IMG/VR virus record: IMGVR_UViG_2703718824_000010
Span: 1-9,732 of that record
DNA from: a virus
Lineage: Duplodnaviria > Heunggongvirae > Uroviricota > Caudoviricetes
DNA length: 9,732 nucleotides
Reading direction: 5' to 3' (one strand)
Shown: positions 1 to 9,732 of the stretch, in pieces
Layout: every line of letters starts with the position of its first letter
Position numbering within the stretch: position 1 is the stretch's first letter
Notes under the pieces: model-generated
What the model was told of the DNA's origin: nothing
What the model saw: only the letters and a program-made list of their open reading frames with translations
Databases searched by the model: none
Position numbers and translations under genes: made by a program

Positions 1-1
1 G

Positions 2-94
2 CAGCGGTCGGCAGGCGCTAAGGCAGAACTGGCACTGGCGGAGAAACTGGGGCATGCAGTTATTTTCCAGGAGGCAACCAGTGAGTGGGATTAA
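2..94 (+). CDS. 3' end of an upstream gene (partial, start outside window); unknown function
   Basis: Frame 2 is open from the window edge to TAA at 92..94. It competes with the 5' end of the next ORF, so only one of the two readings is real here. Confidence 0.3.
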   Translation, partial: QRSAGAKAELALAEKLGHAVIFQEATSEWD

Positions 95-425
95 TTATCA
101 GGCGCTGCGTGAGGCGGCACAAAACTATCAGTCGATGCTGGCGTGGTATCAGGAGAAACCAGACAGTCCAAACGCTGAGCAGGATTGTGATGCAGCTTTG
201 GCTGCGTTTAAGTGTGAAATCCGTCATCGTGAAGTGGATATTATCGCTGATTTGCTGGATGAACTGGAGGAAGCAAAACAGCGTATCGACGAGCAGGAGT
301 CCCGCATAGTGAAGTTACCAGAACCATTCAAGCTGGCTAAATCATCAAGTGGATTAACGTACTACTACGCTGATGAGGTCAATGCCGCACTGACTGCTGC
401 TGGTATTCGCATAGAAGGAGAGTGA
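54..425 (+). CDS. hypothetical phage nin-region protein (123 aa; alternative GTG start at 81)
   Basis: ORF with ATG at 54 preceded by GGAGA (40..44). An alternative GTG at 81 is preceded by a better AGGAGG (69..74, 6-nt spacer). Stop TGA 423..425 sits directly before the next gene's start. No family recognised by eye. Confidence 0.6.
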   Translation: MQLFSRRQPVSGINYQALREAAQNYQSMLAWYQEKPDSPNAEQDCDAALAAFKCEIRHREVDIIADLLDELEEAKQRIDEQESRIVKLPEPFKLAKSSSGLTYYYADEVNAALTAAGIRIEGE

Positions 426-426
426 G

Positions 427-795
427 ATGACCACTATTACCAAAGAGCGACTGCAATGGCTGGCTAACATTTCTGGCCGCGATGACATTGACGATATAGA
501 CGGCGGTGAAATTCGTGAGCTGGCGCTTATCGCACTGGCATCGCTGGAAGCAGAGCCAGTGGCAAAGATTATAGCTCATTACCCATTAGGAGTTGACGTA
601 GGCAAACAAAAGTTCGTACAGGCCATTGGAGAGCTTCCTGACTTTGGCGGATATCTATTTGCCGTCCCGCCAGCGCTGGTAGTGCCTGATAAGTCGCCGC
701 GTGAATACATAAGAGGTTGGCCTCTTGCGCATAGTGATTATGCTGAAGGATGGAACGATTGCCGTGCTGCAATGCTTAATGGAGATAAATCATGA
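427..795 (+). CDS. hypothetical phage protein (122 aa)
   Basis: ATG 427 follows the upstream stop by 1 nt and is preceded by AAGGAG (415..420). Acidic N-terminal region. The stop overlaps the next start (ATGA at 792..795). Confidence 0.7.
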   Translation: MTTITKERLQWLANISGRDDIDDIDGGEIRELALIALASLEAEPVAKIIAHYPLGVDVGKQKFVQAIGELPDFGGYLFAVPPALVVPDKSPREYIRGWPLAHSDYAEGWNDCRAAMLNGDKS

Positions 796-1145
796 TTGAT
801 CGAACCAAACTGGAGCACATCCTCGAATATGCCAGGCAGCAGAGGCATATTGGTCAGCATTGTAAAATTCCACCAGGAGATATGGTTGAAATCATGGAGA
901 TTGCCATGTGCAAGGCTGGCAATTCTCCGGTAACTCCGGATGGTTGGATAAGCTGTAGTGAGCGAATGCCGCCAGTTGGTGTTGATGTACAACTGTTTGT
1001 GTCCAGCACGGGGGAACAGTTTACAGGTTTTAACCTGGATAATACGGGTGACTTCCAGTATGCGCAGTGTTTCGGTGCGCCTATCGTGTGTGAAGCCACA
1101 CACTGGATGCCGCTACCAGAACCGCCGAAGGAGGTGCGCCAATGA
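792..1145 (+). CDS. DUF551-like phage protein (117 aa)
   Basis: ATG 792 overlaps the upstream stop, with GGAGA at 782..786. The C-terminal THWMPLPEPPK matches my recollection of DUF551 prophage proteins; this is recalled, not searched. Confidence 0.65.
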   Translation: MIDRTKLEHILEYARQQRHIGQHCKIPPGDMVEIMEIAMCKAGNSPVTPDGWISCSERMPPVGVDVQLFVSSTGEQFTGFNLDNTGDFQYAQCFGAPIVCEATHWMPLPEPPKEVRQ

Positions 1146-1225
1146 GCTGGCCTGAGGCCTTCTCAAATGTTGGTATTGCAATGGCGGTGGCGCTGGTGGT
1201 GTATTCGATTTGCCGCTGGGGATAA
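1142..1225 (+). CDS. small hydrophobic peptide, 27 aa (MSWPEAFSNVGIAMAVALVVYSICRWG), putative single-pass membrane peptide
   Basis: Strong SD AAGGAGG (1128..1134), 7-nt spacer, ATG 1142 overlapping the upstream TGA (ATGA coupling). Hydrophobic core consistent with one transmembrane helix. Below the 60-aa cutoff of the ORF track. Confidence 0.45.
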   Translation: MSWPEAFSNVGIAMAVALVVYSICRWG

Positions 1226-1317
1226 AAACGGTTTGCGGGGAAAGAAGAGTTAAGTAGAATTGCTGCGGGTGCTTGAGGCTGTCTGCCTCGGGCATGCCGC
1301 CGTAAGGCAGACAGAGA

Positions 1318-1395
1318 AAAGCCCCAGTTAACATTACGCGTCTTGCAGGACGCTTAACATTAATCTGAGGCCCAATCTATGCTTCACAAACGTAG
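1318..1395 (-). ncRNA. candidate Sok-like antisense RNA opposite the mok start region
   Basis: Minus strand has a possible promoter (TTGCCT, 17 nt, TAACCT) right of the mok start and an imperfect hairpin followed by a U-run (GGGGCUUUUCUCUG) ending near 1320. Placed by analogy to hok/sok; boundaries approximate. Confidence 0.3.
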
Positions 1396-1591
1396 GTTAG
1401 CCTCTTACGTGCCGAAAGGCAAGGAGAAGCAGGCTATGAAGCAGCAAAAGGCGATGTTAATCGCCCTGATCGTCATCTGTATTACCGTTGTTGTGACGGC
1501 ACTGGTAACGAGGAAAGACCTCTGCGAGGTACGAATCCGAACCGGCCAGACGGAGGTTGCTGTCTTCGTAGACTACGAATCTGAGAAGTAA
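1379..1591 (+). CDS. Mok-like in-frame N-terminal extension of hok (70 aa)
   Basis: ATG 1379 is in frame with hok and adds 19 codons (MLHKRRLASYVPKGKEKQA), the arrangement recalled for chromosomal mok/hok pairs. Weak SD CTGAGG upstream. Confidence 0.45.
   Translation: MLHKRRLASYVPKGKEKQAMKQQKAMLIALIVICITVVVTALVTRKDLCEVRIRTGQTEVAVFVDYESEK
1436..1591 (+). CDS. hok: Hok/Gef family type I toxin (51 aa membrane peptide)
   Basis: MKQQKAMLIALIVICITVVVTALVTRKDLCEVRIRTGQTEVAVFVDYESEK: transmembrane segment followed by the TRKDLCEV.IRTGQTEVA motif characteristic of Hok/Gef/RelF. SD AAGGAGAAG (1421..1429) before ATG 1436. Confidence 0.85.
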   Translation: MKQQKAMLIALIVICITVVVTALVTRKDLCEVRIRTGQTEVAVFVDYESEK

Positions 1592-1600
1592 GAGTGACCA

Positions 1601-1622
1601 GGCGAGGGAGAAATCCCTCGCC
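1601..1622 (+). other. 9-bp stem-loop just 3' of hok (GGCGAGGGA / GAAA / TCCCTCGCC), possible mRNA 3'-end fold-back element
   Basis: Perfect 9-bp inverted repeat with a 4-nt loop, 10 nt after the hok stop. No U-run follows, so it looks more like a stabilising or fbi-like element than a classical terminator. Confidence 0.45.
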
Positions 1623-1712
1623 ACCTCTGATGTGTCAGGCATCCTCAACGCACCCGCGCTTTACCATACTGAAAATGCTGTTTGAATGTTCATTTCTGAA
1701 AGAGGACTATGA

Positions 1713-2057
1713 ATGAAAAAGGTATTGATTGCAGCACTTATTTCCGGTGTGTCTTTTGGCGTTTTTGCACAGCAGGGTGGTTTCCAGGGGCCTGAAGCAG
1801 AGCGTTCAACAGTAGCGCAGGCAAAAGAACTGAAGGATGATGCATGGGTTATCCTTGAAGGGAGCATCATTAAAAAAGTGGGTGATGAACGTTATGAGTT
1901 TCGTGACAATAGCGGGACAATTGTCACGGATATTGATGACAGCGTATGGGCCGGGCAGAATGTTTCTCCGAAAGACAAAGTAAGAATTGAGGGTGAAATT
2001 GATAAAGACCTGAGCAGTGTTGAAGTTGATGTAAAGGCACTGAAATTATTAAAGTAA
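1713..2057 (+). CDS. YgiW/YdeI (BOF, DUF388) family OB-fold periplasmic protein with signal peptide
   Basis: SD AAGAGGA before ATG 1713. N-terminal signal peptide MKKVLIAALISGVSFGVFAQQ. The mature part (GFQGP...AWVILEGSIIKKVGDERYEFRDNSGTI.V.ID...V.IEGE.D) matches the YgiW-family pattern. An intrinsic terminator follows. Confidence 0.85.
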   Translation: MKKVLIAALISGVSFGVFAQQGGFQGPEAERSTVAQAKELKDDAWVILEGSIIKKVGDERYEFRDNSGTIVTDIDDSVWAGQNVSPKDKVRIEGEIDKDLSSVEVDVKALKLLK

Positions 2058-2075
2058 CCGTCCCGGCTTGCTAAG

Positions 2076-2102
2076 CCCGTCTTACTGACGGGTTTTCTGT
2101 TT
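2076..2102 (+). terminator. rho-independent terminator after the ygiW-like gene
   Basis: CCCGTC / TTACT / GACGGG stem-loop followed by TTTTCTGTTT. Confidence 0.6.
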
Positions 2103-2179
2103 GTACATTCCAGGCGTATTGACTTACAATTCGCGCCGTCAGCCTGAACAACTGACACCTGCTGTCACCGGAGAATCCG

Positions 2180-2452
2180 ATGACACAACACATAAAATCC
2201 CACAATTCTGAAGCCGACCCGGAAATTAAGCGGGGGTGGCGTTTTCGTACGCCTCAGTATGGCTGGTTTCACTATCTGTTCTGTACGACCGATGAGGCAG
2301 ATATGCTTCAAGAGGCGTATCTGCGTCGCGGTGTCCGTGTGGAGCGGAGTCTGAACGTTGATCGTCTGACCTGGACCGTTTCTGTATATCTTCCTGTTCG
2401 CGCACATCTGCCACGAACAAATGCCTGCTACCGTCAGCGTGTCTGGAGATAA
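2180..2452 (+). CDS. hypothetical phage protein (90 aa)
   Basis: GGAGA (2170..2174), 5-nt spacer, ATG 2180. Stop TAA 2450..2452 abuts the next gene's GTG at 2454. No family recognised. Confidence 0.55.
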   Translation: MTQHIKSHNSEADPEIKRGWRFRTPQYGWFHYLFCTTDEADMLQEAYLRRGVRVERSLNVDRLTWTVSVYLPVRAHLPRTNACYRQRVWR

Positions 2453-2453
2453 T

Positions 2454-3503
2454 GTGCGGGTATTACTTCGACCTGTTCTGGTCCCGGAACTTGGCCTGGT
2501 GGTCATTAAGCCAGGTCGCGAATTACTGCCGGTTTTTCATCGCGGCAGGGTGCTGGTGGAGCCGGAACCCAAAAGCATGCGGAGTTTGCCGTCCGGGGTT
2601 GTTCCTGTCGTTTGCCAGCCGCTGGCTGAGGATAAATCATTACTGCCATTTTTCAGCAATGAACGGGTGATTCGTGCCGCTGGCGGTGCTGGTGCGCTGT
2701 CTGACTGGTTATTACGTCACGTGAAATCCTGCCAGTGGCCACATGGCGATTATCATCACAGCGAAACCGTCATTCACCGTTATGGTACCGGCGCGATGGT
2801 GTTGTGCTGGCACTGTGACAACCAGCTGCGCGACCAGACATCAGAATCACTCGATCAACTTGCTCAGCAGAATCTGGTTGCCTGGATGATTGACGTCATC
2901 CGTCATGCAATAAGCGGTACGCAGGAGAGGGAGTTATCGCTGGCCGAATTATCCTGGTGGGCGGCCTGCAATCAGGTGGTGGATGCATTACCTGAGGCAG
3001 TAGCGCGTCGTTCGCTGGGATTACCAGCGGAAAAAATCCGCTCCGTATACCGTGAGAGTGACATCGTACCGGGAGAACAGACAGCCATCAGCATACTGAA
3101 GCAGCGCACAAAAAATATTGCGCTGCCACTTCACGTCCACCAGCAACAAAATCCACCACAGAAAAAAACGGTTGTCAGTATCGCTGTTGATCCGGAGTCT
3201 CCTGAATCGTTCATGAAGCGGCCTAAACGTCGCCGTTGGGTTAATGAGAAATACACGCGCTGGGTAAAGACACAGCCGTGTGCGTGTTGTGGTAAGCCTG
3301 CTGACGATCCGCATCACCTGATTGGTCATGGTCAGGGGGGAATGGGGACAAAGGCCCACGATATTTTCACGCTACCGTTGTGCCGGGAACATCACAACGA
3401 ACTTCATGCAGACCCGCTGGAGTTTGAGAAAAAGTACGGCTCTCAGGTTGAGTTAATTTTTCGTTTTCTTGATCACGCCTTTGCAACCGGCGTGCTTGGG
3501 TAA
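2454..3503 (+). CDS. DUF968 / NinG-like prophage protein with C-terminal HNH-type Cys/His motif (349 aa from GTG 2454; the ORF track's ATG 2421 would overlap the upstream gene)
   Basis: Long ORF whose C-terminus carries CACCGKP..DPHHLIGHG.......C.EHHNELH, a zinc/HNH-like signature. GTG 2454 is preceded by GGAGA (2444..2448) and starts 2 nt after the upstream stop. Resemblance to Qin-prophage YdfU-type proteins is recalled, not searched. Confidence 0.7.
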   Translation: MRVLLRPVLVPELGLVVIKPGRELLPVFHRGRVLVEPEPKSMRSLPSGVVPVVCQPLAEDKSLLPFFSNERVIRAAGGAGALSDWLLRHVKSCQWPHGDYHHSETVIHRYGTGAMVLCWHCDNQLRDQTSESLDQLAQQNLVAWMIDVIRHAISGTQERELSLAELSWWAACNQVVDALPEAVARRSLGLPAEKIRSVYRESDIVPGEQTAISILKQRTKNIALPLHVHQQQNPPQKKTVVSIAVDPESPESFMKRPKRRRWVNEKYTRWVKTQPCACCGKPADDPHHLIGHGQGGMGTKAHDIFTLPLCREHHNELHADPLEFEKKYGSQVELIFRFLDHAFATGVLG

Positions 3504-3515
3504 AAGAGGTTACTG

Positions 3516-3878
3516 ATGCGTATAGAGTTTGTTTTGCCTTATCCGCCGACGGTGAATACTTACTGGCGACGTCGTGGCAGCACATATTTTATATCTGAGG
3601 AGGGAAAGTGCTATCGCCGGGCAGTGGCGCTTATTGTTCGCCAGCAGCGGCTGAAATTAAGCCTGTCCGGAAGGCTGGCGATAAAGGTGATTGCAGAGCC
3701 ACCGGATAAGCGCCGCCGTGACCTGGATAATATCCTGAAAGCGCCGCTGGATGCGCTGACGCATGCAGGGTTGTTAATGGACGATGAGCAGTTTGATGAA
3801 ATCAATATTGTACGTGGCCAGCCAGTATCTGGTGGACGGCTGGAGATAAGAATTACAGAGGTGGGTGTGCATGAATAA
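3516..3878 (+). CDS. rusA: RusA Holliday-junction resolvase (120 aa)
   Basis: AAGAGG before ATG 3516. The size and the motifs PPT.N.YW....G, DKRRRDLDNILKAPLDALTHAG.L.DD and GGRLEI.ITE match RusA, including the catalytic acidic-residue region. Confidence 0.9.
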   Translation: MRIEFVLPYPPTVNTYWRRRGSTYFISEEGKCYRRAVALIVRQQRLKLSLSGRLAIKVIAEPPDKRRRDLDNILKAPLDALTHAGLLMDDEQFDEINIVRGQPVSGGRLEIRITEVGVHE

Positions 3879-4560
3879 CCAGTATTTACAGTTTGTTCGT
3901 GAGCAACTCATGATTGCCACTGCGGATCTCAGTGTGTCGATAAAAGGCCAACTGGAAGCCTGGCAGGAAAATGCACTGTTCGATACAGGGCGTTACAGAC
4001 GCAAAAAAATTCGTTACCGCGATGAGGTAACCGGAAAAATGATCACGCGGGATAACCCACCGATCCCGGGTAAACAATCACTGGCGAAAGGGACGTCAAT
4101 TGCTCTGGTCAGTCCGGTTGAGTTTTCGACATCATCATGGCGACGTGCAGTTCTGGAACTGGAAGCGCATCAGAAGGCGTGGTTGTTGTGGTGTTACGGC
4201 GGAAACATTTGCTGGGAGTATCAGATTGCGATAACGCAGTGGGCGTGGAATGAATTTAATACTCAATCCGGTACCAGAAAAATAGCTGGGAAAACGCTGG
4301 AACGTCTGAAGAAGTTGATCTGGCTGGCGGCGCAAGCGGTAAAAGCTGAGCTTTTTGGTGGGGAAGGTTATGAATACCGGGATCTGGCATCACTGGTGGG
4401 AGTGACATCAAAAAACTGGTCTGAGACATTTACTGAACGCTGGGTTGCAATGAAGCACATTTTTCTACAGCTTGATAGCCAAGCTTTATTGCTTTTAACG
4501 AAAACACGTTCAAAACAAAAGACCACATTTTCACAGCAAAATATTGCAAAACTGGATTAA
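3865..4560 (+). CDS. putative late-gene antiterminator Q-like protein (231 aa; possible start at ATG 3871)
   Basis: Assigned mainly by position: immediately after rusA, and its 3' end overlaps a strong sigma70 promoter followed by a nearby terminator, the pR'/tR' arrangement. No Q zinc-finger motif could be confirmed by eye, so the family is uncertain. Confidence 0.5.
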   Translation: MCMNNQYLQFVREQLMIATADLSVSIKGQLEAWQENALFDTGRYRRKKIRYRDEVTGKMITRDNPPIPGKQSLAKGTSIALVSPVEFSTSSWRRAVLELEAHQKAWLLWCYGGNICWEYQIAITQWAWNEFNTQSGTRKIAGKTLERLKKLIWLAAQAVKAELFGGEGYEYRDLASLVGVTSKNWSETFTERWVAMKHIFLQLDSQALLLLTKTRSKQKTTFSQQNIAKLD

Positions 4561-4572
4561 AAAGCATATATT
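4544..4572 (+). promoter_or_regulatory. candidate late promoter pR' (-35 TTGCAA, 17-nt spacer, -10 TATATT)
   Basis: Near-consensus sigma70 hexamers with ideal spacing overlap the stop of the Q-like gene. The predicted start near 4579 would give a roughly 70-nt transcript ending at the terminator at 4623..4649. Confidence 0.5.
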
Positions 4573-4622
4573 TCATGTAAATCTGATATTTTGCCGATTT
4601 TGTACGCGATGGCAAAGTAAGC

Positions 4623-4649
4623 AAACCCCGCCGCCGAGCGGGTTTTTTT
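4623..4649 (+). terminator. rho-independent terminator (tR'-like)
   Basis: AAACCCCGC / CGCCGA / GCGGG followed by seven T residues. Confidence 0.7.
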
Positions 4650-4753
4650 GTTGGCTTAACAGGTTATAATGTACAGTGCGAAACTGCCTGTTCAGCAGAA
4701 TCATTTTGTTTGTAGTGGAGTTCACAAGTCGTCATTATCAGGCAAAGAGATTT

Positions 4754-5155
4754 ATGGTGTTAAAGTATCAGCCGTCTGTTCGTTCTGTTTTAATGTGTGA
4801 TTTTCGGGGAATGGTTGTTCCGGAAATAGTCAAGGTCAGGCCAGTGGTAGTCGTGTCCAGAAACAGACACAACAATCAATTGGTAACAGTGGTACCAATA
4901 AGCACTACTGAACCGATTCCTCGCAGAGATTGCCATCATGAGTTATCAGAAAACCCCATCCCTGGTAATGAGCATATTACTTGTTGGGTAAAATGTGACA
5001 TGTTGATGACGGTTTCATTGAGCCGACTGGATCGCATAAAAACTAGAACCTGGGAGGGGCGAAATTATATTGTTCCTATGATTGCGGAAGATGAGTTTGA
5101 GAATATTAAACGGGCGGTATTGCACGGGATAGGGATGGCTTATCTGTATCGATAA
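4754..5155 (+). CDS. MazF/PemK/Kid-fold protein, putative endoribonuclease toxin (133 aa), with no adjacent antitoxin gene
   Basis: AAAGAGA before ATG 4754 (the track's longer ORF from 4676 lacks an RBS). VLMCDFRGMVVPEIVKVRPVVVVSRNRHNNQLVTVVPISTTEP follows the PemK/MazF N-terminal pattern (..DF.P..G.E....RP.vVvS ... vvP.T) as recalled. Confidence 0.65.
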   Translation: MVLKYQPSVRSVLMCDFRGMVVPEIVKVRPVVVVSRNRHNNQLVTVVPISTTEPIPRRDCHHELSENPIPGNEHITCWVKCDMLMTVSLSRLDRIKTRTWEGRNYIVPMIAEDEFENIKRAVLHGIGMAYLYR

Positions 5156-5172
5156 TCGAAAACGATTATCGA
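5149..5172. repeat. perfect 10-bp inverted repeat with AAAA spacer (TCGATAATCG aaaa CGATTATCGA), operator-like palindrome overlapping the stop codon
   Basis: Read directly from the sequence. With flanks, four TCGA tetramers lie within about 30 bp. No U-run follows, so it is not a typical terminator. Confidence 0.6.
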
Positions 5173-5190
5173 ATTCGATATGAATTTATA

Positions 5191-5219
5191 TTGACACACA
5201 TAGTGTGTTGACTGATACT
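5191..5219 (+). promoter_or_regulatory. candidate sigma70 promoter (-35 TTGACA, 17-nt spacer, -10 GATACT) with AT-rich upstream flank
   Basis: Consensus -35 and acceptable -10 with an AT-rich UP-like stretch (TATGAATTTATA). It points into a leader carrying an SD and two terminators. Confidence 0.5.
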
Positions 5220-5308
5220 GTCGCTGTACCCTGATGGGACTTGTGAGACTTCCGAACTGGAAGCCAGGAGTAGCAATAAGGTGATGACAAGCCTGCTGCC
5301 CCTGTGTA

Positions 5309-5340
5309 AAAGGCACCTTAATGGTGCCTTTGTCGTTTTT
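5309..5340 (+). terminator. intrinsic terminator 1 in the leader (AAGGCACC / TTAAT / GGTGCCTT + TGTCGTTTTT)
   Basis: 8-bp perfect stem followed by a T-rich tract. Confidence 0.55.
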
Positions 5341-5350
5341 ATCAAAAGAT

Positions 5351-5375
5351 CCCCGCCACTGGCGGGTTTTTTTTT
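5351..5375 (+). terminator. intrinsic terminator 2 in the leader (CCCGCC / ACT / GGCGGG + nine T)
   Basis: GC-rich hairpin followed by nine T residues. The pair forms a tandem terminator about 90-150 nt downstream of the 5191..5219 promoter. Confidence 0.7.
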
Positions 5376-5418
5376 CAAAATATTGGTGTGTCACGTTAAC
5401 CGGAAAAAGGAAAAAGAC

Positions 5419-5616
5419 ATGCTGAAACAGCAGGATATGACAGAAACCGCCAGAGTGGTGTTTAATGAATTAAGTGCCACCGAACCGGCGACAGTCGGGG
5501 AGATTGCGCAGAATACTTATCTTTCACGTGAACGCTGCCAGTTAATACTGACCCAGCTTGTTATGGCGGGTCTGGCAGACTATCAGTTCGGTTGTTACAG
5601 ACGCCTTCAGTCCTGA
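5419..5616 (+). CDS. small winged-helix DNA-binding protein, PapI/FaeA-like (65 aa)
   Basis: ATG 5419 has only a weak AAGGA upstream. TVGEIAQNTYLSRERCQLILTQLVMAGLA resembles the PapI/FaeA recognition-helix region as recalled. The stop lies inside a terminator hairpin. An in-frame upstream GTG/ATG (5281/5284) with strong AGGAG would read through both leader terminators. Confidence 0.6.
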   Translation: MLKQQDMTETARVVFNELSATEPATVGEIAQNTYLSRERCQLILTQLVMAGLADYQFGCYRRLQS

Positions 5617-5628
5617 AGGCTTTTTTAT
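5603..5628 (+). terminator. rho-independent terminator after the small wHTH gene
   Basis: GCCTTCA / GTCC / TGAAGGC followed by TTTTTT. Confidence 0.6.
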
Positions 5629-5766
5629 TTGTGGTAAATGGGCGGCTGGTGGGTGTTAGGGGCACTCACCAGCCATCTGCTCATGCGTCCGGATCACAAG
5701 CAAACCTCAGGCCCACTGCTTTGCGCAAAAGCAGAATGAGCCTATCAGAGACAGGCTTAATGATCC

Positions 5767-6825
5767 ATGCTTAATACTGTAAAAATATCCAGTTGTGAGT
5801 TAATCAACGCCGACTGCCTGGAATTTATCCGGTCGTTACCCGAAAATTCTGTTGACCTGATAGTCACGGACCCGCCGTACTTTAAAGTGAAGCCTGAGGG
5901 CTGGGATAACCAGTGGAAGGGCGACGATGATTACCTGAAGTGGCTGGACCAGTGTCTGGCGCAGTTCTGGCGGGTGCTGAAACCTGCCGGAAGTCTTTAC
6001 CTGTTCTGTGGCCATCGCCTGGCATCTGACATTGAAATCATGATGCGTGAACGCTTCAGTGTGCTGAACCATATTATCTGGGCGAAGCCGTCCGGACGCT
6101 GGAACGGGTGCAACAAGGAAAGCCTGAGGGCGTATTTCCCCGCCACAGAGCGCATTCTGTTCGCGGAACATTATCAGGGGCCGTATCGTCCGAAAGATGC
6201 CGGGTATGAGGCGAAGGGCAGGGCACTGAAACAGCATGTGATGGCCCCGCTGATTGCTTACTTTCGTGATGCACGTGCTGCCCTGGGGATAACGGCAAAA
6301 CAGATTGCTGATGCCACAGGAAAGAAAAACATGGTGTCGCACTGGTTCAGTGCCAGTCAGTGGCAGCTACCGGACGAAAGCGATTATCTGAAATTACAGG
6401 CGCTGTTTGCCCGGGTGGCAGAAGAGAAGCATCAGCGCGGAGAACTGGAAAAGCCACATCACCAACTGGTCAGCACATACAGTGAACTGAACCGACACTA
6501 TACGGAACTGCAGAGTGAATATAAGCATCTGCGGCGGTATTTCGGTGTGACGGCGCAGGTGCCGTACACCGATGTGTGGACGCATAAACCGGTGCAGTAC
6601 TATCCCGGGAAACATCCGTGCGAAAAACCGGCAGAAATGCTGCAGCAGATAATCAGCGCGAGCAGTCGTCCGGGTGACCTGGTTGCAGATTTTTTCATGG
6701 GGTCGGGTTCGACAGTCAAAGCAGCGATGGCGCTGGGGCGTCGTGCAACTGGCGTTGAGCTGGAGACTGAACGTTTTGAGCAGACGGTCAGGGAAGTTCA
6801 GGATTTAGCCAGTCAGAACGGATGA
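5767..6825 (+). CDS. beta-class DNA N6-adenine/N4-cytosine methyltransferase (352 aa), phage Dam-like orphan methylase
   Basis: Motif IV DPPY near the N-terminus (LIVTDPPYF) and motif I FxGxG near the C-terminus (DFFMGSGSTVKAA), the beta-class order typical of the N6_N4_Mtase family. ATG 5767 is the first start after an in-frame TGA. Confidence 0.9.
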   Translation: MLNTVKISSCELINADCLEFIRSLPENSVDLIVTDPPYFKVKPEGWDNQWKGDDDYLKWLDQCLAQFWRVLKPAGSLYLFCGHRLASDIEIMMRERFSVLNHIIWAKPSGRWNGCNKESLRAYFPATERILFAEHYQGPYRPKDAGYEAKGRALKQHVMAPLIAYFRDARAALGITAKQIADATGKKNMVSHWFSASQWQLPDESDYLKLQALFARVAEEKHQRGELEKPHHQLVSTYSELNRHYTELQSEYKHLRRYFGVTAQVPYTDVWTHKPVQYYPGKHPCEKPAEMLQQIISASSRPGDLVADFFMGSGSTVKAAMALGRRATGVELETERFEQTVREVQDLASQNG

Positions 6826-6865
6826 TATTGCAGGATTAGTTACGTACCGTTATTATCCTGCGCCC

Positions 6866-6941
6866 GGCCCTTTAGCTCAGTGGTGAGAGCGAGCGACTCA
6901 TAATCGCCAGGTCGCTGGTTCAAATCCAGCAAGGGCCACCA
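6866..6941 (+). tRNA. tRNA with anticodon CAU (Met, or Ile2 if lysidine-modified; ileZ-like in Stx phages)
   Basis: Hand-folded cloverleaf: acceptor GGCCCTT/AAGGGCC, D-arm GCTC..GAGC, anticodon loop CTCATAA, T-arm GCTGG-TTCAAAT-CCAGC, encoded 3' CCA. Confidence 0.9.
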
Positions 6942-6948
6942 TCACATA

Positions 6949-7025
6949 CCGCCATTAGCTCATCGGGATAGAGCGCCAGCCTTCGAAGCTGGTTGCGCGG
7001 GGTTCGAGTCCTCGATGGCGGTCCA
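6949..7025 (+). tRNA. tRNA-Arg (anticodon UCG)
   Basis: Acceptor CCGCCAT/ATGGCGG, anticodon stem CCAGC/GCTGG with loop CTTCGAA, T-loop TTCGAGT, encoded CCA. Confidence 0.85.
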
Positions 7026-7038
7026 TTATCTGTACACT

Positions 7039-7115
7039 GCGTTGTTAGCTCAGCCGGACAGAGCAATTGCCTTCTAAGCAATCGGTCACTGGTTCGAATC
7101 CAGTACAACGCACCA
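7039..7115 (+). tRNA. tRNA-Arg (anticodon UCU)
   Basis: Acceptor GCGTTGT/ACAACGC, anticodon stem ATTGC/GCAAT with loop CTTCTAA, T-arm ACTGG-TTCGAAT-CCAGT, encoded CCA. Confidence 0.9.
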
Positions 7116-7200
7116 CACTTATTTTTCCTGGCTCGCTTTTGTGGGCCTTTTTTGCCTCCGCGCCACGCCCGGCGCATATCAACCACAGAGCCTTTCACAA

Positions 7201-8136
7201 ATGGTTTTTCAGGAGTCCAATAATCGCGATGTCGCCAGAAAATACGCAGAGTACATCACGTCCGTTCCTTTGCGTCGGTTTGTCGCTGAAAAAGTGCGGG
7301 AATATTGTGGTGATCTGCCCCTGAGTATTTTTGATGGTGCGTGTGGCTCCGGGCAACTGGAGCAGTTTCTCACGGTGGGAAGTCTGTATGCTGTGGATAT
7401 ACAGGCCTCTCCGTTGTTGCATATCCCGGATAATTTCCCGGATGCCACAGTGAAGACGGTCAATGAAAATTTCTTCAACGCCATCGATGATGTCAGTGAC
7501 ACGGACACGTTCGATTGTGTCATCATGAATCCGCCTTTTTCGCTACAGTACAAAGCACAGAGCGCGGATATCAGGGAGAAGATTTCAGCGATGATGCCTT
7601 ATAAAAAGACCTCCGGTGTTCTGGATGACGCGTTTTATGTTCTGGCGAGCATGAAGGCAAGATTTTCATTTTTTTTGTGCTTTCCCGGGGTTGGTTACAG
7701 GCGTGGTGAGCTGGCAATGCGTCAGTATTTTGGCAACCGCGTTGTTGAGTTGGTTCAGATTTCAGGCGGGTTCGCTGATACATCGGTTTCTGTATTATTC
7801 GTCATTATTGATAACGAAAAGCAAAGCGATGATGTTGTTGTTTATGGCGTCGGGTTTAATGGGGAAACTTGCAAAAAGTCAGCGCCGGTGACGGAGAAGA
7901 TTAACACAGACAACTGGAACAGGCCGTACATTGCTGAAGAGAAGGAGGTCATTGACATTGTACAGGTGACGGCTGAGTTGCTTGTAAGGCAAACAAGAAG
8001 ACGGAAACTTGAAGATGAGCATAACGCCTTTGTGTGGTCCTTAATGAGTGATGATCAGCGGACGGAGGTTTCCCGTTTTCTGTCAGTGCACGGTTTGTTT
8101 TTTGATGCCGGTTCAGGTTGTGTGCACATACGTTAA
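7201..8136 (+). CDS. gamma-order SAM-dependent N6-adenine methyltransferase-like protein (311 aa from ATG 7201; the track's ORF opens at GTG 7141, too close to the tRNA)
   Basis: Motif I FDGACGSGQLEQF (like HsdM DPACGSGGFL) lies upstream of motif IV DCVIMNPPF, the gamma-class order. No signal peptide and no Stx-like features. No obvious SD before 7201. It is short for a DNA methyltransferase with a full target-recognition domain. Confidence 0.7.
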   Translation: MVFQESNNRDVARKYAEYITSVPLRRFVAEKVREYCGDLPLSIFDGACGSGQLEQFLTVGSLYAVDIQASPLLHIPDNFPDATVKTVNENFFNAIDDVSDTDTFDCVIMNPPFSLQYKAQSADIREKISAMMPYKKTSGVLDDAFYVLASMKARFSFFLCFPGVGYRRGELAMRQYFGNRVVELVQISGGFADTSVSVLFVIIDNEKQSDDVVVYGVGFNGETCKKSAPVTEKINTDNWNRPYIAEEKEVIDIVQVTAELLVRQTRRRKLEDEHNAFVWSLMSDDQRTEVSRFLSVHGLFFDAGSGCVHIR

Positions 8137-8200
8137 ATCTGGTGCCGGTCGCTGGTTGCCGGTGTCGTGATGATTGTCTTCCTGTTGCCCCGAAAATTTT

Positions 8201-8439
8201 AAATGTCTCACAATTCAGACGGTTGACAGTTGTCTGATTTGCGGGGAGTTTGTTAAAAGAAACTGGCATGGTGAATCCCCCTGAGCGGAGGGGCATATCA
8301 GCGACAGGTGTTTGGTTACATCCCTTATCCTTTCTGTGCGGGTTCAGGTGCTGATACTGAACTCACCGGGAGGCACCCGGCACCATGCGCATGATGATAC
8401 AGATACGCAGCGTCAGCCCCTCTCCGGAGGGGCTTTTCT
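8201..8439 (+). repeat. structured non-coding module, copy A (candidate sRNA gene): conserved 5' box, two hairpins, intrinsic terminator
   Basis: Shares ordered blocks with copy B: CTCACAATTCAG, TTTGTTAAAA (extended -10-like), hairpin CCCCT-GAGCGG-AGGGG (8276..8294), CTGAACTCACCGGGAGGCACCCGGCA (hairpin 8366..8380), and terminator AGCCCCTC/TCCG/GAGGGGCT+TTTCT (8415..8439). Candidate ORFs inside are not conserved between copies. Confidence 0.5.
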
Positions 8440-8512
8440 GTGCCGGATACATCACAGTTTCTGGAACCTTGGGTACTACAGTATCAGTCAGGGTGCTATA
8501 TTTTCAGATGTG

Positions 8513-8614
8513 ATGAAAGCCTGTCAGCAGGCAGGGCGTATCGGAAATGACCCAGTAGAGAAAACGTTGACTCAGATACCGGTGCTGAGTTACCGGGAAA
8601 CCGGCATCACATGA
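8513..8614 (+). CDS. possible 33-codon small ORF (MKACQQAGRIGNDPVEKTLTQIPVLSYRETGIT), speculative
   Basis: Extended -10 TGcTATATT at 8494..8502 just upstream and a terminator just downstream, but no SD. The longer 100-aa track ORF (8312..8614) runs through the copy A hairpins and terminator and is rejected. Confidence 0.2.
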   Translation: MKACQQAGRIGNDPVEKTLTQIPVLSYRETGIT

Positions 8615-8628
8615 CCGCTATCCTTCCA

Positions 8629-8656
8629 GGCCCGTCCGCTCCGGTGGGCCTTTTTA
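8629..8656 (+). terminator. intrinsic terminator (GGCCCGTCCG / CTC / CGGTGGGCC + TTTTT)
   Basis: GC-rich imperfect stem followed by five T residues. Confidence 0.5.
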
Positions 8657-8679
8657 CTGCAGAAAACAGGTTCCCCGTT

Positions 8680-8929
8680 AAATGCTATGTTGCTCACAAT
8701 TCAGTCAGTTGAAGGTTGTCTTCCCGACTGAGAATTTGTTAAAAAATTTCTGCATGATGAATCCCCCTGTGCGGAGGGGCGGCTGGTGTACGGAATGGTC
8801 TCTGATGATCGTTAGCGAGAATGACGCGGGTTCGGTGGCACCGGGCTGAACTCACCGGGAGGCACCCGGCATCATGTAATGAACGGTACATAGCGCTACT
8901 CTTCAGCCCCTCTCCGGAGGGGCTTTCTT
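8680..8929 (+). repeat. structured non-coding module, copy B (candidate sRNA gene), paralogous to copy A
   Basis: Same block order as copy A: CTCACAATTCAG, TTTGTTAAAA, hairpin CCCCT-GTGCGG-AGGGG (8764..8780), CTGAACTCACCGGGAGGCACCCGGCA (8849..8870), terminator AGCCCCTC/TCCG/GAGGGGCT+TTCTT (8905..8929). The stretches between blocks have diverged. Confidence 0.5.
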
Positions 8930-8933
8930 ATGG

Positions 8934-8964
8934 ATAAAAAAAGCCCGCATGGTGAGATGCGGGC
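8934..8964 (-). terminator. hairpin GCCCGCAT / GGTGAG / ATGCGGGC preceded by an A-run on +, i.e. a minus-strand intrinsic terminator (or insulator)
   Basis: 8-bp perfect stem. The + strand has AAAAAAA upstream and no T-run downstream, so it would terminate leftward minus-strand transcription. Confidence 0.4.
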
Positions 8965-9161
8965 AGCAAGGAATAAACAACAAAACGTGAAGTAATCAAT
9001 TTTTCAGCTGGAGAATAATACCCGACAGTAATCACTCTGCGCAACTGCGCGGCCTTTTTCGTATTGCGGGCTGTAGTCTTCCTCCTGCCATTGTCCTGTA
9101 ACTTCCGGACTTCAGCCCGCCCCTCATCTGACTCACAACATTATCCCGACCGGGAGGATTC

Positions 9162-9732
9162 ATGGCATTTAAACACTATGACGTGGTCAGGGCGGCGTCG
9201 CCGTCAGACCTTGCGGAGCGACTGACTCAAAAACTGAAGGAGGGGTGGCAGCCATTTGGCAGTCCTGTCGCCATCACGCCTTATACCCTGATGCAGGCCA
9301 TTGCGGCGGAAGGTGATGTCACCACACCTGTGTTAGTGAAGCCGTCGGCTGGAGAAGGCACAGTAATCAGCGCCACCAGAGACCCGGAGTATTACTTTGT
9401 TGTGGTTCTGGCGGGGCAGTCAAACAGCATGGCATATGGTGAAGGCCTTCCGCTGCCGGAGACATATGACCGTCCGGACCCGCGTATTAAGCAGCTGGCG
9501 CGCCGCAGTACAGTGACACCGGGTGGTGCCGCCTGTAAGTATAACGACATTATTCCGGCGGACTATTGTCTGCATGATGTGCAGGACATGAGCCGTCTTA
9601 ACCATCCGAAAGCGGACCTGTCAAAGGGGCAGTACGGAACCGTGGGGCAGGGGCTGCATATCGCCAAAAAACTGCTGCCGTTTATACCGGCGAATGCGGG
9701 TATTTTGCTGGTTCCGTGCTGCCGTGGTGCTT
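9162..9732 (+). CDS. nanS-p: NanS-p-like sialate O-acetylesterase (N-terminal DUF1737 plus start of SGNH/SASA domain); partial, continues past the window
   Basis: GGGAGG (9152..9157) before ATG 9162. The N-terminus MAFKHYDVVRAASPSDLAERLTQKLKEGWQPFGSPVAITPY matches the DUF1737 start of Stx-prophage NanS-p/YjhS-like esterases as recalled. A GQSN block (SGNH block I) follows. Open to the window edge. Confidence 0.8.
   Translation, partial: MAFKHYDVVRAASPSDLAERLTQKLKEGWQPFGSPVAITPYTLMQAIAAEGDVTTPVLVKPSAGEGTVISATRDPEYYFVVVLAGQSNSMAYGEGLPLPETYDRPDPRIKQLARRSTVTPGGAACKYNDIIPADYCLHDVQDMSRLNHPKADLSKGQYGTVGQGLHIAKKLLPFIPANAGILLVPCCRGA

Follow-up and report, generated by a model that had tools for sequence, protein, structure and literature searches.

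MazF and PemK are the textbook examples of type II toxins; a MazF gene that stands "solitary" tends to be dismissed as an orphan. One such gene lies in the 9,732-nucleotide (nt) stretch of viral DNA analysed here, hereafter the window (IMG/VR record IMGVR_UViG_2703718824_000010, positions 1 to 9,732), where positions 4754-5155 of the + strand encode a YifN-type, MazF/PemK-fold protein of 133 amino acids (aa). An earlier note on this DNA, made from the sequence alone, had described the gene as an orphan toxin placed behind a late phage promoter. Comparative analysis indicates that positions 4650-5340 probably form a self-contained cassette, composed of this YifN-branch MazF-fold endoribonuclease and a separately transcribed RNA antitoxin of about 115 nt.

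In the RalR/RalA and SymE/SymR systems, a small RNA (sRNA) encoded beside a nuclease toxin is complementary to the toxin mRNA, RalRA being located in the rac prophage. Short terminated transcripts between Q and the late genes are represented by lambda 6S RNA and by StxS-type pR'-tR' leaders. Type III toxin-antitoxin (TA) systems, such as ToxIN, CptIN and TenpIN, combine a protein toxin with an adjacent RNA antitoxin; ToxN is a sequence-specific endoRNase, and ToxI-type antitoxins are co-transcribed upstream tandem direct repeats, set apart from the toxin gene by a terminator and processed by the toxin (PMC5772629, PMC4627078). The AvcID system uses an sRNA antitoxin without repeats, AvcI (PMC10511110). 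A literature search on YifN, on MazF with an RNA antitoxin and on a pemK RNA motif returned no description of a toxin and RNA pair like the one in the window, and the conserved pairing reported below points to an undescribed toxin/RNA-antitoxin family.

Linkage of the Toxin Gene to a Small RNA

The toxin gene is followed on the + strand by a structured sRNA of about 115 nt (5226-5340), supported by folding, a covariance model and covariation, which is the candidate antitoxin. A first covariance model was built from 14 enterobacterial and viral copies of this RNA. Linkage was assessed in two sets, namely 80 loci from GTDB species genomes, retrieved by protein similarity only, and 80 toxin-seeded viral contigs, searched with models R1 and R2. 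In the first set, a full-length RNA was located directly 3' of the toxin, on the same strand, in 78 of 80 loci (scores of 30-94 bits). A weak match at locus L088 raises this count to 79/80, and the sole other covariance-model match in about 0.5 Mb was a weak one (E = 0.6). The RNA was adjacent in about 76 of the 80 viral contigs, so that it stands beside the toxin in about 155 of 160 loci overall. It was wholly missing only at L081, which lies at a contig end, and at L159, where the toxin is truncated; an intact toxin gene on a complete contig without the RNA was never found in the surveyed loci. What had been called an orphan thus has an obligate RNA neighbour. The earlier note had also suggested that the downstream promoter-plus-terminator RNA could be a non-canonical partner, a proposal now strongly supported by the comparative evidence of linkage and covariation. 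The check that it proposed, whether homologues always co-occur with this RNA and with the downstream gene for a small winged helix-turn-helix (wHTH) protein, came out in favour of the RNA and not of the wHTH gene, which is missing from the other toxin loci.

The pair occurs in Pseudomonas, Caulobacteraceae, Neisseria, Vogesella, Massilia, Pasteurellaceae, Geobacteraceae, Anaerolineales and Saccharibacteria as well as on phage contigs, and adjacency to the RNA holds down to 36-40% protein identity across phyla. It is found on prophages, on small plasmids and in integron-like contexts, and outside phages, on chromosomes and plasmids, as well as in Mu-like settings, it has promoters of its own. 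In Enterobacter prophages, a 79%-identical toxin homologue is situated behind a different Q (PF03589), and also in a Mu-like context; the DNA homology spans window positions 4731-5338, covering the toxin gene, the RNA promoter P2 and the RNA itself, which ends in a hairpin (5309-5331) and a U-tract. The arrangement is not rigid. In four viral contigs (L174, L178, L180 and L181), the order is swapped, with the RNA (approximately 1356-1498) immediately upstream of the toxin, adjacency and strand being kept. On p5217 (L203, NC_011799), a mobilizable 5.2-kb plasmid carrying a 41%-identical homologue (region 366-991), the RNA match (26.7 bits) is on the opposite strand and convergent with the toxin gene; an 86-aa open reading frame (ORF) without a confident Pfam match lies upstream of this homologue. 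Two further neighbours, a group II intron directly after the pair in a Saccharibacteria metagenome-assembled genome (L046, 3611-5423) and an sRNA-Xcc1 element after it in a Pasteurellaceae genome (L022, 3631-3719), point to mobile contexts.

Structure and Transcription Signals of the RNA

The RNA is predicted to fold into four helices (minimum free energy -43.1 kcal/mol, z = -3.9), and the window copy scores 138 bits with the covariance model. From 5' to 3', it comprises SL1, the single-stranded motif CUUGUGAGACU, SL2 and a long SL3, whose apical loop is GGUGAUGACAAGCC (5280-5293); the terminator hairpin T2 (5309-5331) and then UUUGUCGUUUUU complete it. In an alignment of 44 sequences, the paired cells amount to 96.6%, and compensatory changes on both sides are seen at 27 of 31 base pairs. 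The covariation score is 0.60, against 0.21 in shuffles (none of 500 as high) and 0.06-0.12 with slid partners. Between E. coli and Saccharibacteria, almost no variation is seen in the motif CUUGUGAGACU and the apical loop GAUGACAAGC. The RNA is present as a single copy without internal repeats, and it has its own promoter and intrinsic terminator.

The promoter of the RNA gene, P2 (TTGACA-17-GATACT, 5191-5219, + strand), matches the consensus at 10 of 12 positions and is the best match in a 3.5-kb scan. Its position relative to the RNA is conserved: in 40 of 44 diverse loci, a sigma-70-type -10 hexamer ends exactly 6 nt before the modelled RNA 5' end, with a mean consensus match of 8.4/12 compared with 5.25 at control positions. 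This spacing holds even where the promoter is buried in the last codons of the toxin gene. The RNA is 88-90% identical to the Enterobacter copies, whereas the toxin coding sequence there is only 70-72% identical, with saturated synonymous sites. A coding role of the RNA region is excluded because one-nucleotide indels between homologues break every frame; this disposes of a 16-aa ORF on the + strand, of 70-aa and 84-aa ORFs on the minus strand and of a 66-aa "hypothetical protein" in RefSeq. The RNA matches no family of Rfam 15, whether the copy of the window or those of 10 distant loci are compared. Within the RNA, the highest Rfam score is 16 bits, against a gathering threshold of 64, and isrK, with 19.8 bits against a threshold of 50, clips only the terminator end.

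The loop core AUGACAA (within 5280-5293) is complementary both to the 3' tail of the RNA, UUGUCAU/UUGUCGU (5332-5340), and to an element of the toxin leader (4729-4739), which suggests alternative intra- and intermolecular pairings. A pseudoknot may form between CUUGU in the 5' single strand and ACAAG in the loop, or between the loop and the UUGUCAU tail; the partners are nearly invariant, and variants such as L046 and L066 alter the 5' motif without a compensating change.

The Toxin Protein and Its Conservation

The assignment of the protein to the MazF/PemK fold, made earlier from the letters alone, was confirmed by profile and structure comparison. The Pfam family PemK_toxin (PF02452) matches residues 12-95 with E = 6e-14 (52.6 bits against a cut-off of 23.1) and is carried by all 111 homologues. 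The AlphaFold2 model of the 133-aa protein reaches a pLDDT of 91.2 and a pTM of 0.84. When this model was compared with the PDB by Foldseek, the top 50 matches were all MazF or close orthologues (YdcE, MoxT), with TM-scores of 0.56-0.83 and a probability of 1.0, the best being MazF of Staphylococcus aureus, Bacillus subtilis, Mycobacterium tuberculosis and E. coli (0.67-0.83). As modelled, the protein has the SH3-like barrel of the MazF/Kid fold. Identity to the solved MazF proteins is only 12-20%, and a phmmer search of the PDB with the single protein gave chance matches only. In the family profile alignment to 5ck9, RPvvvvS pairs with RPAVVLS and vvPiSt with CVPCTT, so that the catalytic residues R29 and T52 of E. 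coli MazF align with R29 and S50 of the toxin, both of which are invariant across 35 family members.

Sources label the family "YifN (PemK superfamily)" (JGI), the protein matches PHROG 15698 ("unknown function"), and neither NCBIfam nor PADLOC holds a model of the YifN-type toxin family. An exhaustive search returned 673 cluster representatives at 50% identity, and relatives occur in about 500 GTDB species genomes. Neither in the window nor among the relatives was a conserved protein partner gene for the toxin found. A same-strand ORF of at least 50 aa within 80 nt upstream is present in 22 of 80 relatives, and one alone looks genuine; the Enterobacter and Pseudomonas contexts have no upstream protein antitoxin gene.

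It might be argued that the toxin is an inactive, decaying passenger and that the proximity of the RNA comes from hitch-hiking along with a mobile segment. Only 24 of 5,426 complete E. coli genomes contain the cassette, toxin-deleted derivatives exist, and the core-genome yifN of K-12 is a pseudogene, all of which would fit such a history. This explanation is nevertheless very improbable. Nonsynonymous differences (pN 0.13-0.17) remain few against saturated synonymous ones (pS about 0.75), with a ratio of nonsynonymous to synonymous substitution rates (dN/dS) below 0.1, which indicates strong purifying selection on the toxin gene, and 12 residues are invariant, the catalytic pair included. Moreover, linkage to the RNA at the protein divergence described above, across phyla, goes far beyond what hitch-hiking could maintain.

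Complementarity Between the RNA Loop and the Toxin mRNA

The 5' untranslated region (UTR) of the toxin contains the element UCGUCAUUAUC (4729-4739, + strand), which is complementary to the RNA loop GGUGAUGAC over 9 contiguous base pairs (bp), 2 of them G:U (shuffle p = 0.03). The corresponding Enterobacter element, UUGUCAUCACC, forms 11 Watson-Crick bp with the loop (p<=0.01), and the two C-to-U differences between the two 5'UTR elements keep the pairing as G:U. The site has a fixed position, about 20-26 nt upstream of the start codon, and complementarity extends over 11 bp in Enterobacter/Klebsiella-type loci, 10 bp in Neisseria-type loci and 9 bp with G:U in the window.

These matches raise the alternative of a purely antisense, type I-like RNA, which would pair with the toxin 5'UTR and block translation or trigger decay, leaving the protein untouched. 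In its favour are the 9-11 bp between the loop GGUGAUGACAA and the 5'UTR in E. coli, Enterobacter/Klebsiella-type and Neisseria-type loci (shuffle p<=0.03), the G:U pairs kept by the C-to-U changes, and a weaker 8-bp UTR match in L157. However, only 18.5% of 108 non-redundant loci have a UTR site at p<=0.05. Among these loci, Pseudomonas, Caulobacteraceae and most other lineages have no UTR site complementary to the loop, yet all of these lineages have the invariant loop unchanged. If the RNA only paired with variable UTRs, one would not expect the loop to stay identical from phylum to phylum, and antisense action alone is quite unlikely to be the explanation. Direct binding of the toxin by the RNA is favoured instead, because CUUGUGAGACU and the loop GAUGACAAGC are near-invariant while the toxin UTRs are unrelated.

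One-Sided Loss and Orphan RNAs

Toxin and RNA are not lost symmetrically. In E. coli, the RNA is present in 24 of 24 toxin genomes and alone in 13 more (13/37). Nine of these RNA-only genomes carry a clean microhomology deletion of 4705-5198 (S19-651 type), three have the RNA body within a lambda-like pR' leader (E9 type), and one has a diverged copy with compensatory changes (A34). Among 27 RNA-seeded viral contigs, the toxin is present in 17 and absent from 9, one contig being cut at its end; toxin-less L104-type phages likewise have the RNA body inside the pR' leader, and an RNA search of the "phages" collection gave no match. A toxin that never occurs without the RNA, together with an RNA that often occurs alone, is what one would expect of a poison and its antidote.

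The orphan RNA of E. coli A34 (L013, 1567-2600) is 80% identical, has covarying stems and lies 3' of a Panacea-domain gene and 5' of parDE. The same locus has a separate lone copy of the RNA terminator hairpin at approximately 2310-2345.

Such orphans also bear on a different explanation, in which the two genes encode a ribonucleoprotein with a non-TA role, the protein processing, stabilizing or delivering the sRNA, or the RNA serving as a specificity or activating cofactor. Strict pairing says that the two components work together, and not what the sign of that work is. The orphan RNAs in phage pR' leaders are under selection, suggesting an RNA activity of its own, and the conserved single-stranded motifs look like sRNA seed regions. 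The pattern of loss, with an RNA that outlives toxin deletion and a toxin that is never alone, nonetheless fits poison and antidote better; the catalytic residues of a known toxin family are kept; and prophages, small plasmids and integron-like contexts are typical homes of TA systems. A ribonucleoprotein of this kind is considered unlikely.

A second YifN gene, part of the core genome, occurs between rep and ppiC in 4,019 of the 5,426 E. coli genomes. In K-12 (L201, 14905-15461) the gene is a pseudogene; in O157 Al Ain and EC17GD31 (L204, L205) it is intact and encodes 149 aa. The intact core YifN is 29% identical to the toxin of the window.

Prophage Setting of the Cassette

The DNA of the window corresponds to the late-control region of a lambdoid prophage of E. 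coli, and the Shiga toxin-producing E. coli strain 2013C-3033 matches it with 100% identity except for one 79-bp indel. The gene order is hok/sok, a BOF/YgiW gene, DUF968, RusA, the Q antiterminator, the 133-aa PemK-like ORF, the 65-aa wHTH gene, an N6/N4 DNA methylase, three tRNAs, a second methylase and STnc100-type sRNAs. The Q82-like antiterminator Q (3865-4560, + strand; PF06323, E = 6e-90) is a backbone gene outside the cassette, and its DNA is 77% identical to that of phage 434 Q, annotated as "Q82-like". The candidate late promoter pR' (TTGCAA-17-TATATT, 4544-4572, + strand), recovered by the promoter scan with 9 of 12 matches, likewise belongs to the backbone, being also conserved in phage 434 and in relatives without the toxin (JE86, SCU-482). 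Downstream lies T1, the resident tR'-type terminator (4627-4649, + strand; hairpin 4627-4642 and a T-run to 4649), found by the terminator scan and aligned with the annotated terminator of phage 434. This homology supports the pR'/tR' label proposed in the earlier note.

Homology to JE86 ends at T1, the left edge of the segment that differs from the toxin-less relatives, and resumes at T3 (CCCGCCACTGGCGGG and then a T-run, 5352-5375, + strand), the tR' variant of those relatives. JE86 and SCU-482 have Q, pR', the leader, one terminator, about 110 nt and then the wHTH gene, whereas the window contains about 725 additional bases between the terminator copies T1 and T3. By this comparison, the toxin and RNA segment is an addition to the phage backbone. 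The 79-bp segment between T3 and the wHTH gene in the 2013C-3033 prophage (L001, 7030-7110), absent from the window at 5375/5376, is also present in toxin-less relatives.

The 65-aa wHTH gene (5419-5616, + strand; PHROG 331, unknown function) had been offered earlier as a possible antitoxin. It is a backbone gene, and more than 2,000 toxin-less E. coli genomes carry it together with the methylase gene. Since toxin-less relatives carry it and the toxin and RNA segment is the added part, the wHTH protein is not a dedicated antitoxin, and this candidate was discarded. A reading of the 5191-5375 unit as the true pR'/6S/tR' of the phage was also rejected, because the Q82-like pR'/tR' occupies 4544-4649 and because the RNA follows YifN genes in non-phage genomes.

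Upstream of the toxin, the ATG at 4754 is preceded by a plausible Shine-Dalgarno sequence, AAGAG (4743-4747), and a longer reading from GTG 4676 is unneeded because homologues begin at the same methionine. The ATG stands 105 nt beyond T1, in agreement with the earlier estimate of about 100. In front of it, the + strand has only two ORFs, one of 41 aa (4544-4669) that runs across the promoter and the terminator and one of 43 aa (4669-4800) in a different frame, and the Enterobacter cassette conserves neither of these regions. The earlier statement that no antitoxin ORF lies upstream holds as well for the relatives, where none is conserved. A perfect TATAAT (4665-4670, + strand), read from the sequence, is the candidate -10 element of a promoter belonging to the toxin gene itself; in distant homologues, TATAAT or TGnTATAAT stands 20-45 nt before the start codon, and the window's element is kept in the toxin-deletion derivative S19-651. 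Promoter-like sites in the promoter scan were not in excess over shuffles. A minus-strand promoter-like site (4763-4734), considered as the origin of an antisense RNA, is not conserved in Enterobacter and was dropped.

The stop codon had been placed in a perfect 10-bp palindrome. The repeat search recovered two 10-nt arms (5149-5158 and 5163-5172) that are 100% complementary, with the TAA (5153-5155) inside the left arm, and a 4-nt spacer between them, so that the perfect arms stand and the structure is an inverted repeat of the hairpin type (5149-5172) rather than a continuous palindrome. By a rough calculation, not a tool output, about 0.01 such perfect repeats are expected by chance per 1.2 kb. 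This repeat is confined to the E. coli lineage, the Enterobacter homologue with 79% identity having no conserved counterpart. It is part of a block rich in ATCGA and of dyad symmetry (5148-5179), which also includes a 12-bp palindrome with an EcoRI site, ATCGAATTCGAT (5168-5179), just 5' of P2; among the lineages of the cassette, only that of E. coli has this block.

The location behind Q invites the explanation that the toxin is an orphan late RNase, expressed by Q-dependent read-through from pR' and serving host shut-off, with the wHTH protein as a possible antitoxin and the RNA as a second pR' or 6S-like leader. The toxin gene does stand directly behind the Q82-like pR'/tR', and the RNA body lies within a lambda-like pR' leader in toxin-less E9- and L104-type phages. 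Against this, the wHTH gene is backbone in the toxin-less genomes described above, the pair is present on Pseudomonas, Caulobacter and Neisseria chromosomes and on plasmids, devoid of Q, and the RNA has its own conserved promoter everywhere. The explanation is highly improbable, and late Q-dependent expression, which the earlier note had raised conditionally, is not supported as the defining logic of the locus. The position behind tR' looks like a moron insertion site and not like a part of the mechanism. Transcription from pR' may nevertheless read through into the cassette during induction.

Three other features of the prophage stand apart from the cassette. A complete hok/sok type I TA module is located at 1267-1591 (Pfam HOK_GEF, E = 8e-23; Rfam sok, 117.7 bits), so that a classical RNA-antitoxin system is present in this prophage as a second one. 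The STnc100 sRNA family is represented by three tandem copies (8237-8443, 8484-8657 and 8723-8935), which lie 3' of the second methylase and score 164.6, 134.9 and a weak 28.5 bits. The tRNA at 6866-6941 is tRNA-Met (CAU) according to ARAGORN, an identical gene being tRNA-Ile in RefSeq; presumably, it is the lysidine-modified ileZ-type tRNA of Stx-like phages.

Proposed Mechanism and Its Significance

At the level of comparative sequence analysis, the locus is a co-inherited two-gene module of protein and RNA, in which the RNA has transcription signals of its own and the toxin retains its catalytic residues. In the mechanism proposed for it, the near-consensus P2 would drive synthesis of the RNA in excess, and the RNA would neutralize the toxin, keeping it inactive most probably by direct protein binding through CUUGUGAGACU and the loop GAUGACAAGC. 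Both motifs could serve as pseudo-substrates, in a type III-like manner comparable to that of ToxIN or AvcID. The loop may also pair with the toxin mRNA in the enterobacterial and Neisseria lineages, providing an added type I-like translational brake. If RNA synthesis stopped, through loss of the element or through phage transcription shut-off, the RNA would decay and the RNase would be freed. The prophage copy is best viewed as a moron lodged behind tR' of a Q82-like late promoter, where, in lysogens, T1 is expected to protect the cassette from pR', and at induction polymerase modified by Q would pass this terminator. Its role in the prophage is plausibly abortive infection, superinfection exclusion or prophage retention. 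RNA-only phages, with the RNA in the pR' leader, may be toxin-loss derivatives, or their RNA may act as a decoy against such toxins.

Several observations weigh against this interpretation. The RNA is single-copy, non-repetitive and usually downstream, unlike the upstream tandem repeats of classical type III systems. Direct RNA-protein binding is something we infer from co-occurrence, the invariant loops and one-sided loss. Base pairing with the UTR is unlikely to be the general mechanism, because about 80% of lineages have no UTR complementarity. Orphan RNA copies retain the conserved motifs and compensatory changes (L013), and the RNA may therefore have a function independent of a toxin in cis. 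Finally, the core yifN gene is followed only by a reduced RNA-like element without the SL3 loop, made up of SL1, the single strand and SL2 as terminator (a weak match of 12 bits, E about 0.02), so some members of the family may work without the full RNA.

Should the RNA be the antitoxin, the RNA-antitoxin (type III-like) principle would reach the best-studied toxin fold, hundreds of annotated "orphan toxins" would be accounted for, a new structured RNA family would join the catalogue, and a simple two-part system would become available for studies of phage defence and RNA-protein recognition. The subfamily accompanied by the covarying sRNA includes the E. coli YifN group, chromosomal genes of Pseudomonas and Neisseria, and prophage and plasmid copies. 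For Stx-type lambdoid prophages, the locus illustrates that a second promoter/terminator unit behind Q need not be pR'/tR'. A wider proposal is advanced tentatively, at slightly less than even confidence: the YifN branch would be a new, phylum-spanning TA class in which a MazF-fold RNase is neutralized by a non-repetitive four-helix sRNA with a promoter of its own and not by a MazE-type protein. Such an sRNA would be the first RNA antitoxin of the MazF family, and RNA-only lambdoid phages, which have it in a constitutively transcribed pR' leader, would use this RNA as a decoy.

Comparison with Known Systems

The pR' leaders of the lambda 6S and StxS type share with this locus a short terminated transcript between Q and the late genes, and in E9- and L104-type phages the RNA is indeed part of the pR' leader. 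Unlike those transcripts, it is not bound to Q or pR': a promoter of its own precedes it, and in non-phage genomes it is found behind YifN genes. RalRA and SymER resemble the cassette in that an sRNA with complementarity to the toxin mRNA is encoded beside a nuclease-type toxin. The pairing here, however, is short (9-11 nt), in trans and confined to few lineages; the RNA does not overlap the toxin gene in antisense, and its structure and loops persist from phylum to phylum independently of the UTR sequence.

With the type II systems MazEF, PemIK and Kid-Kis, the locus shares the toxin fold (TM-scores of 0.67-0.83), the positions of the catalytic Arg and Ser/Thr and the C-terminal helix. It differs in that no MazE/PemI-type antitoxin gene lies upstream in the window, as holds for the great majority of the 160 relatives, and in that the YifN family forms its own branch. 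The locus is not of type II architecture because it has no protein antitoxin. The toxin also differs from those of type III systems, belonging to PF02452 (MazF/PemK) and not to ToxN/AbiQ or the deaminases, and the classical type III architecture is not present because there is no upstream repeat array; the broader arrangement of a toxin with an adjacent RNA is. As in type III systems, the RNA gene adjoins the toxin and is co-inherited with it, both kinds of module occur on phages, plasmids and mobile elements, and the expected trigger is the same, a labile RNA lost after transcription shut-off. AvcID offers a further likeness, its antitoxin AvcI being a small RNA, as is the candidate here.

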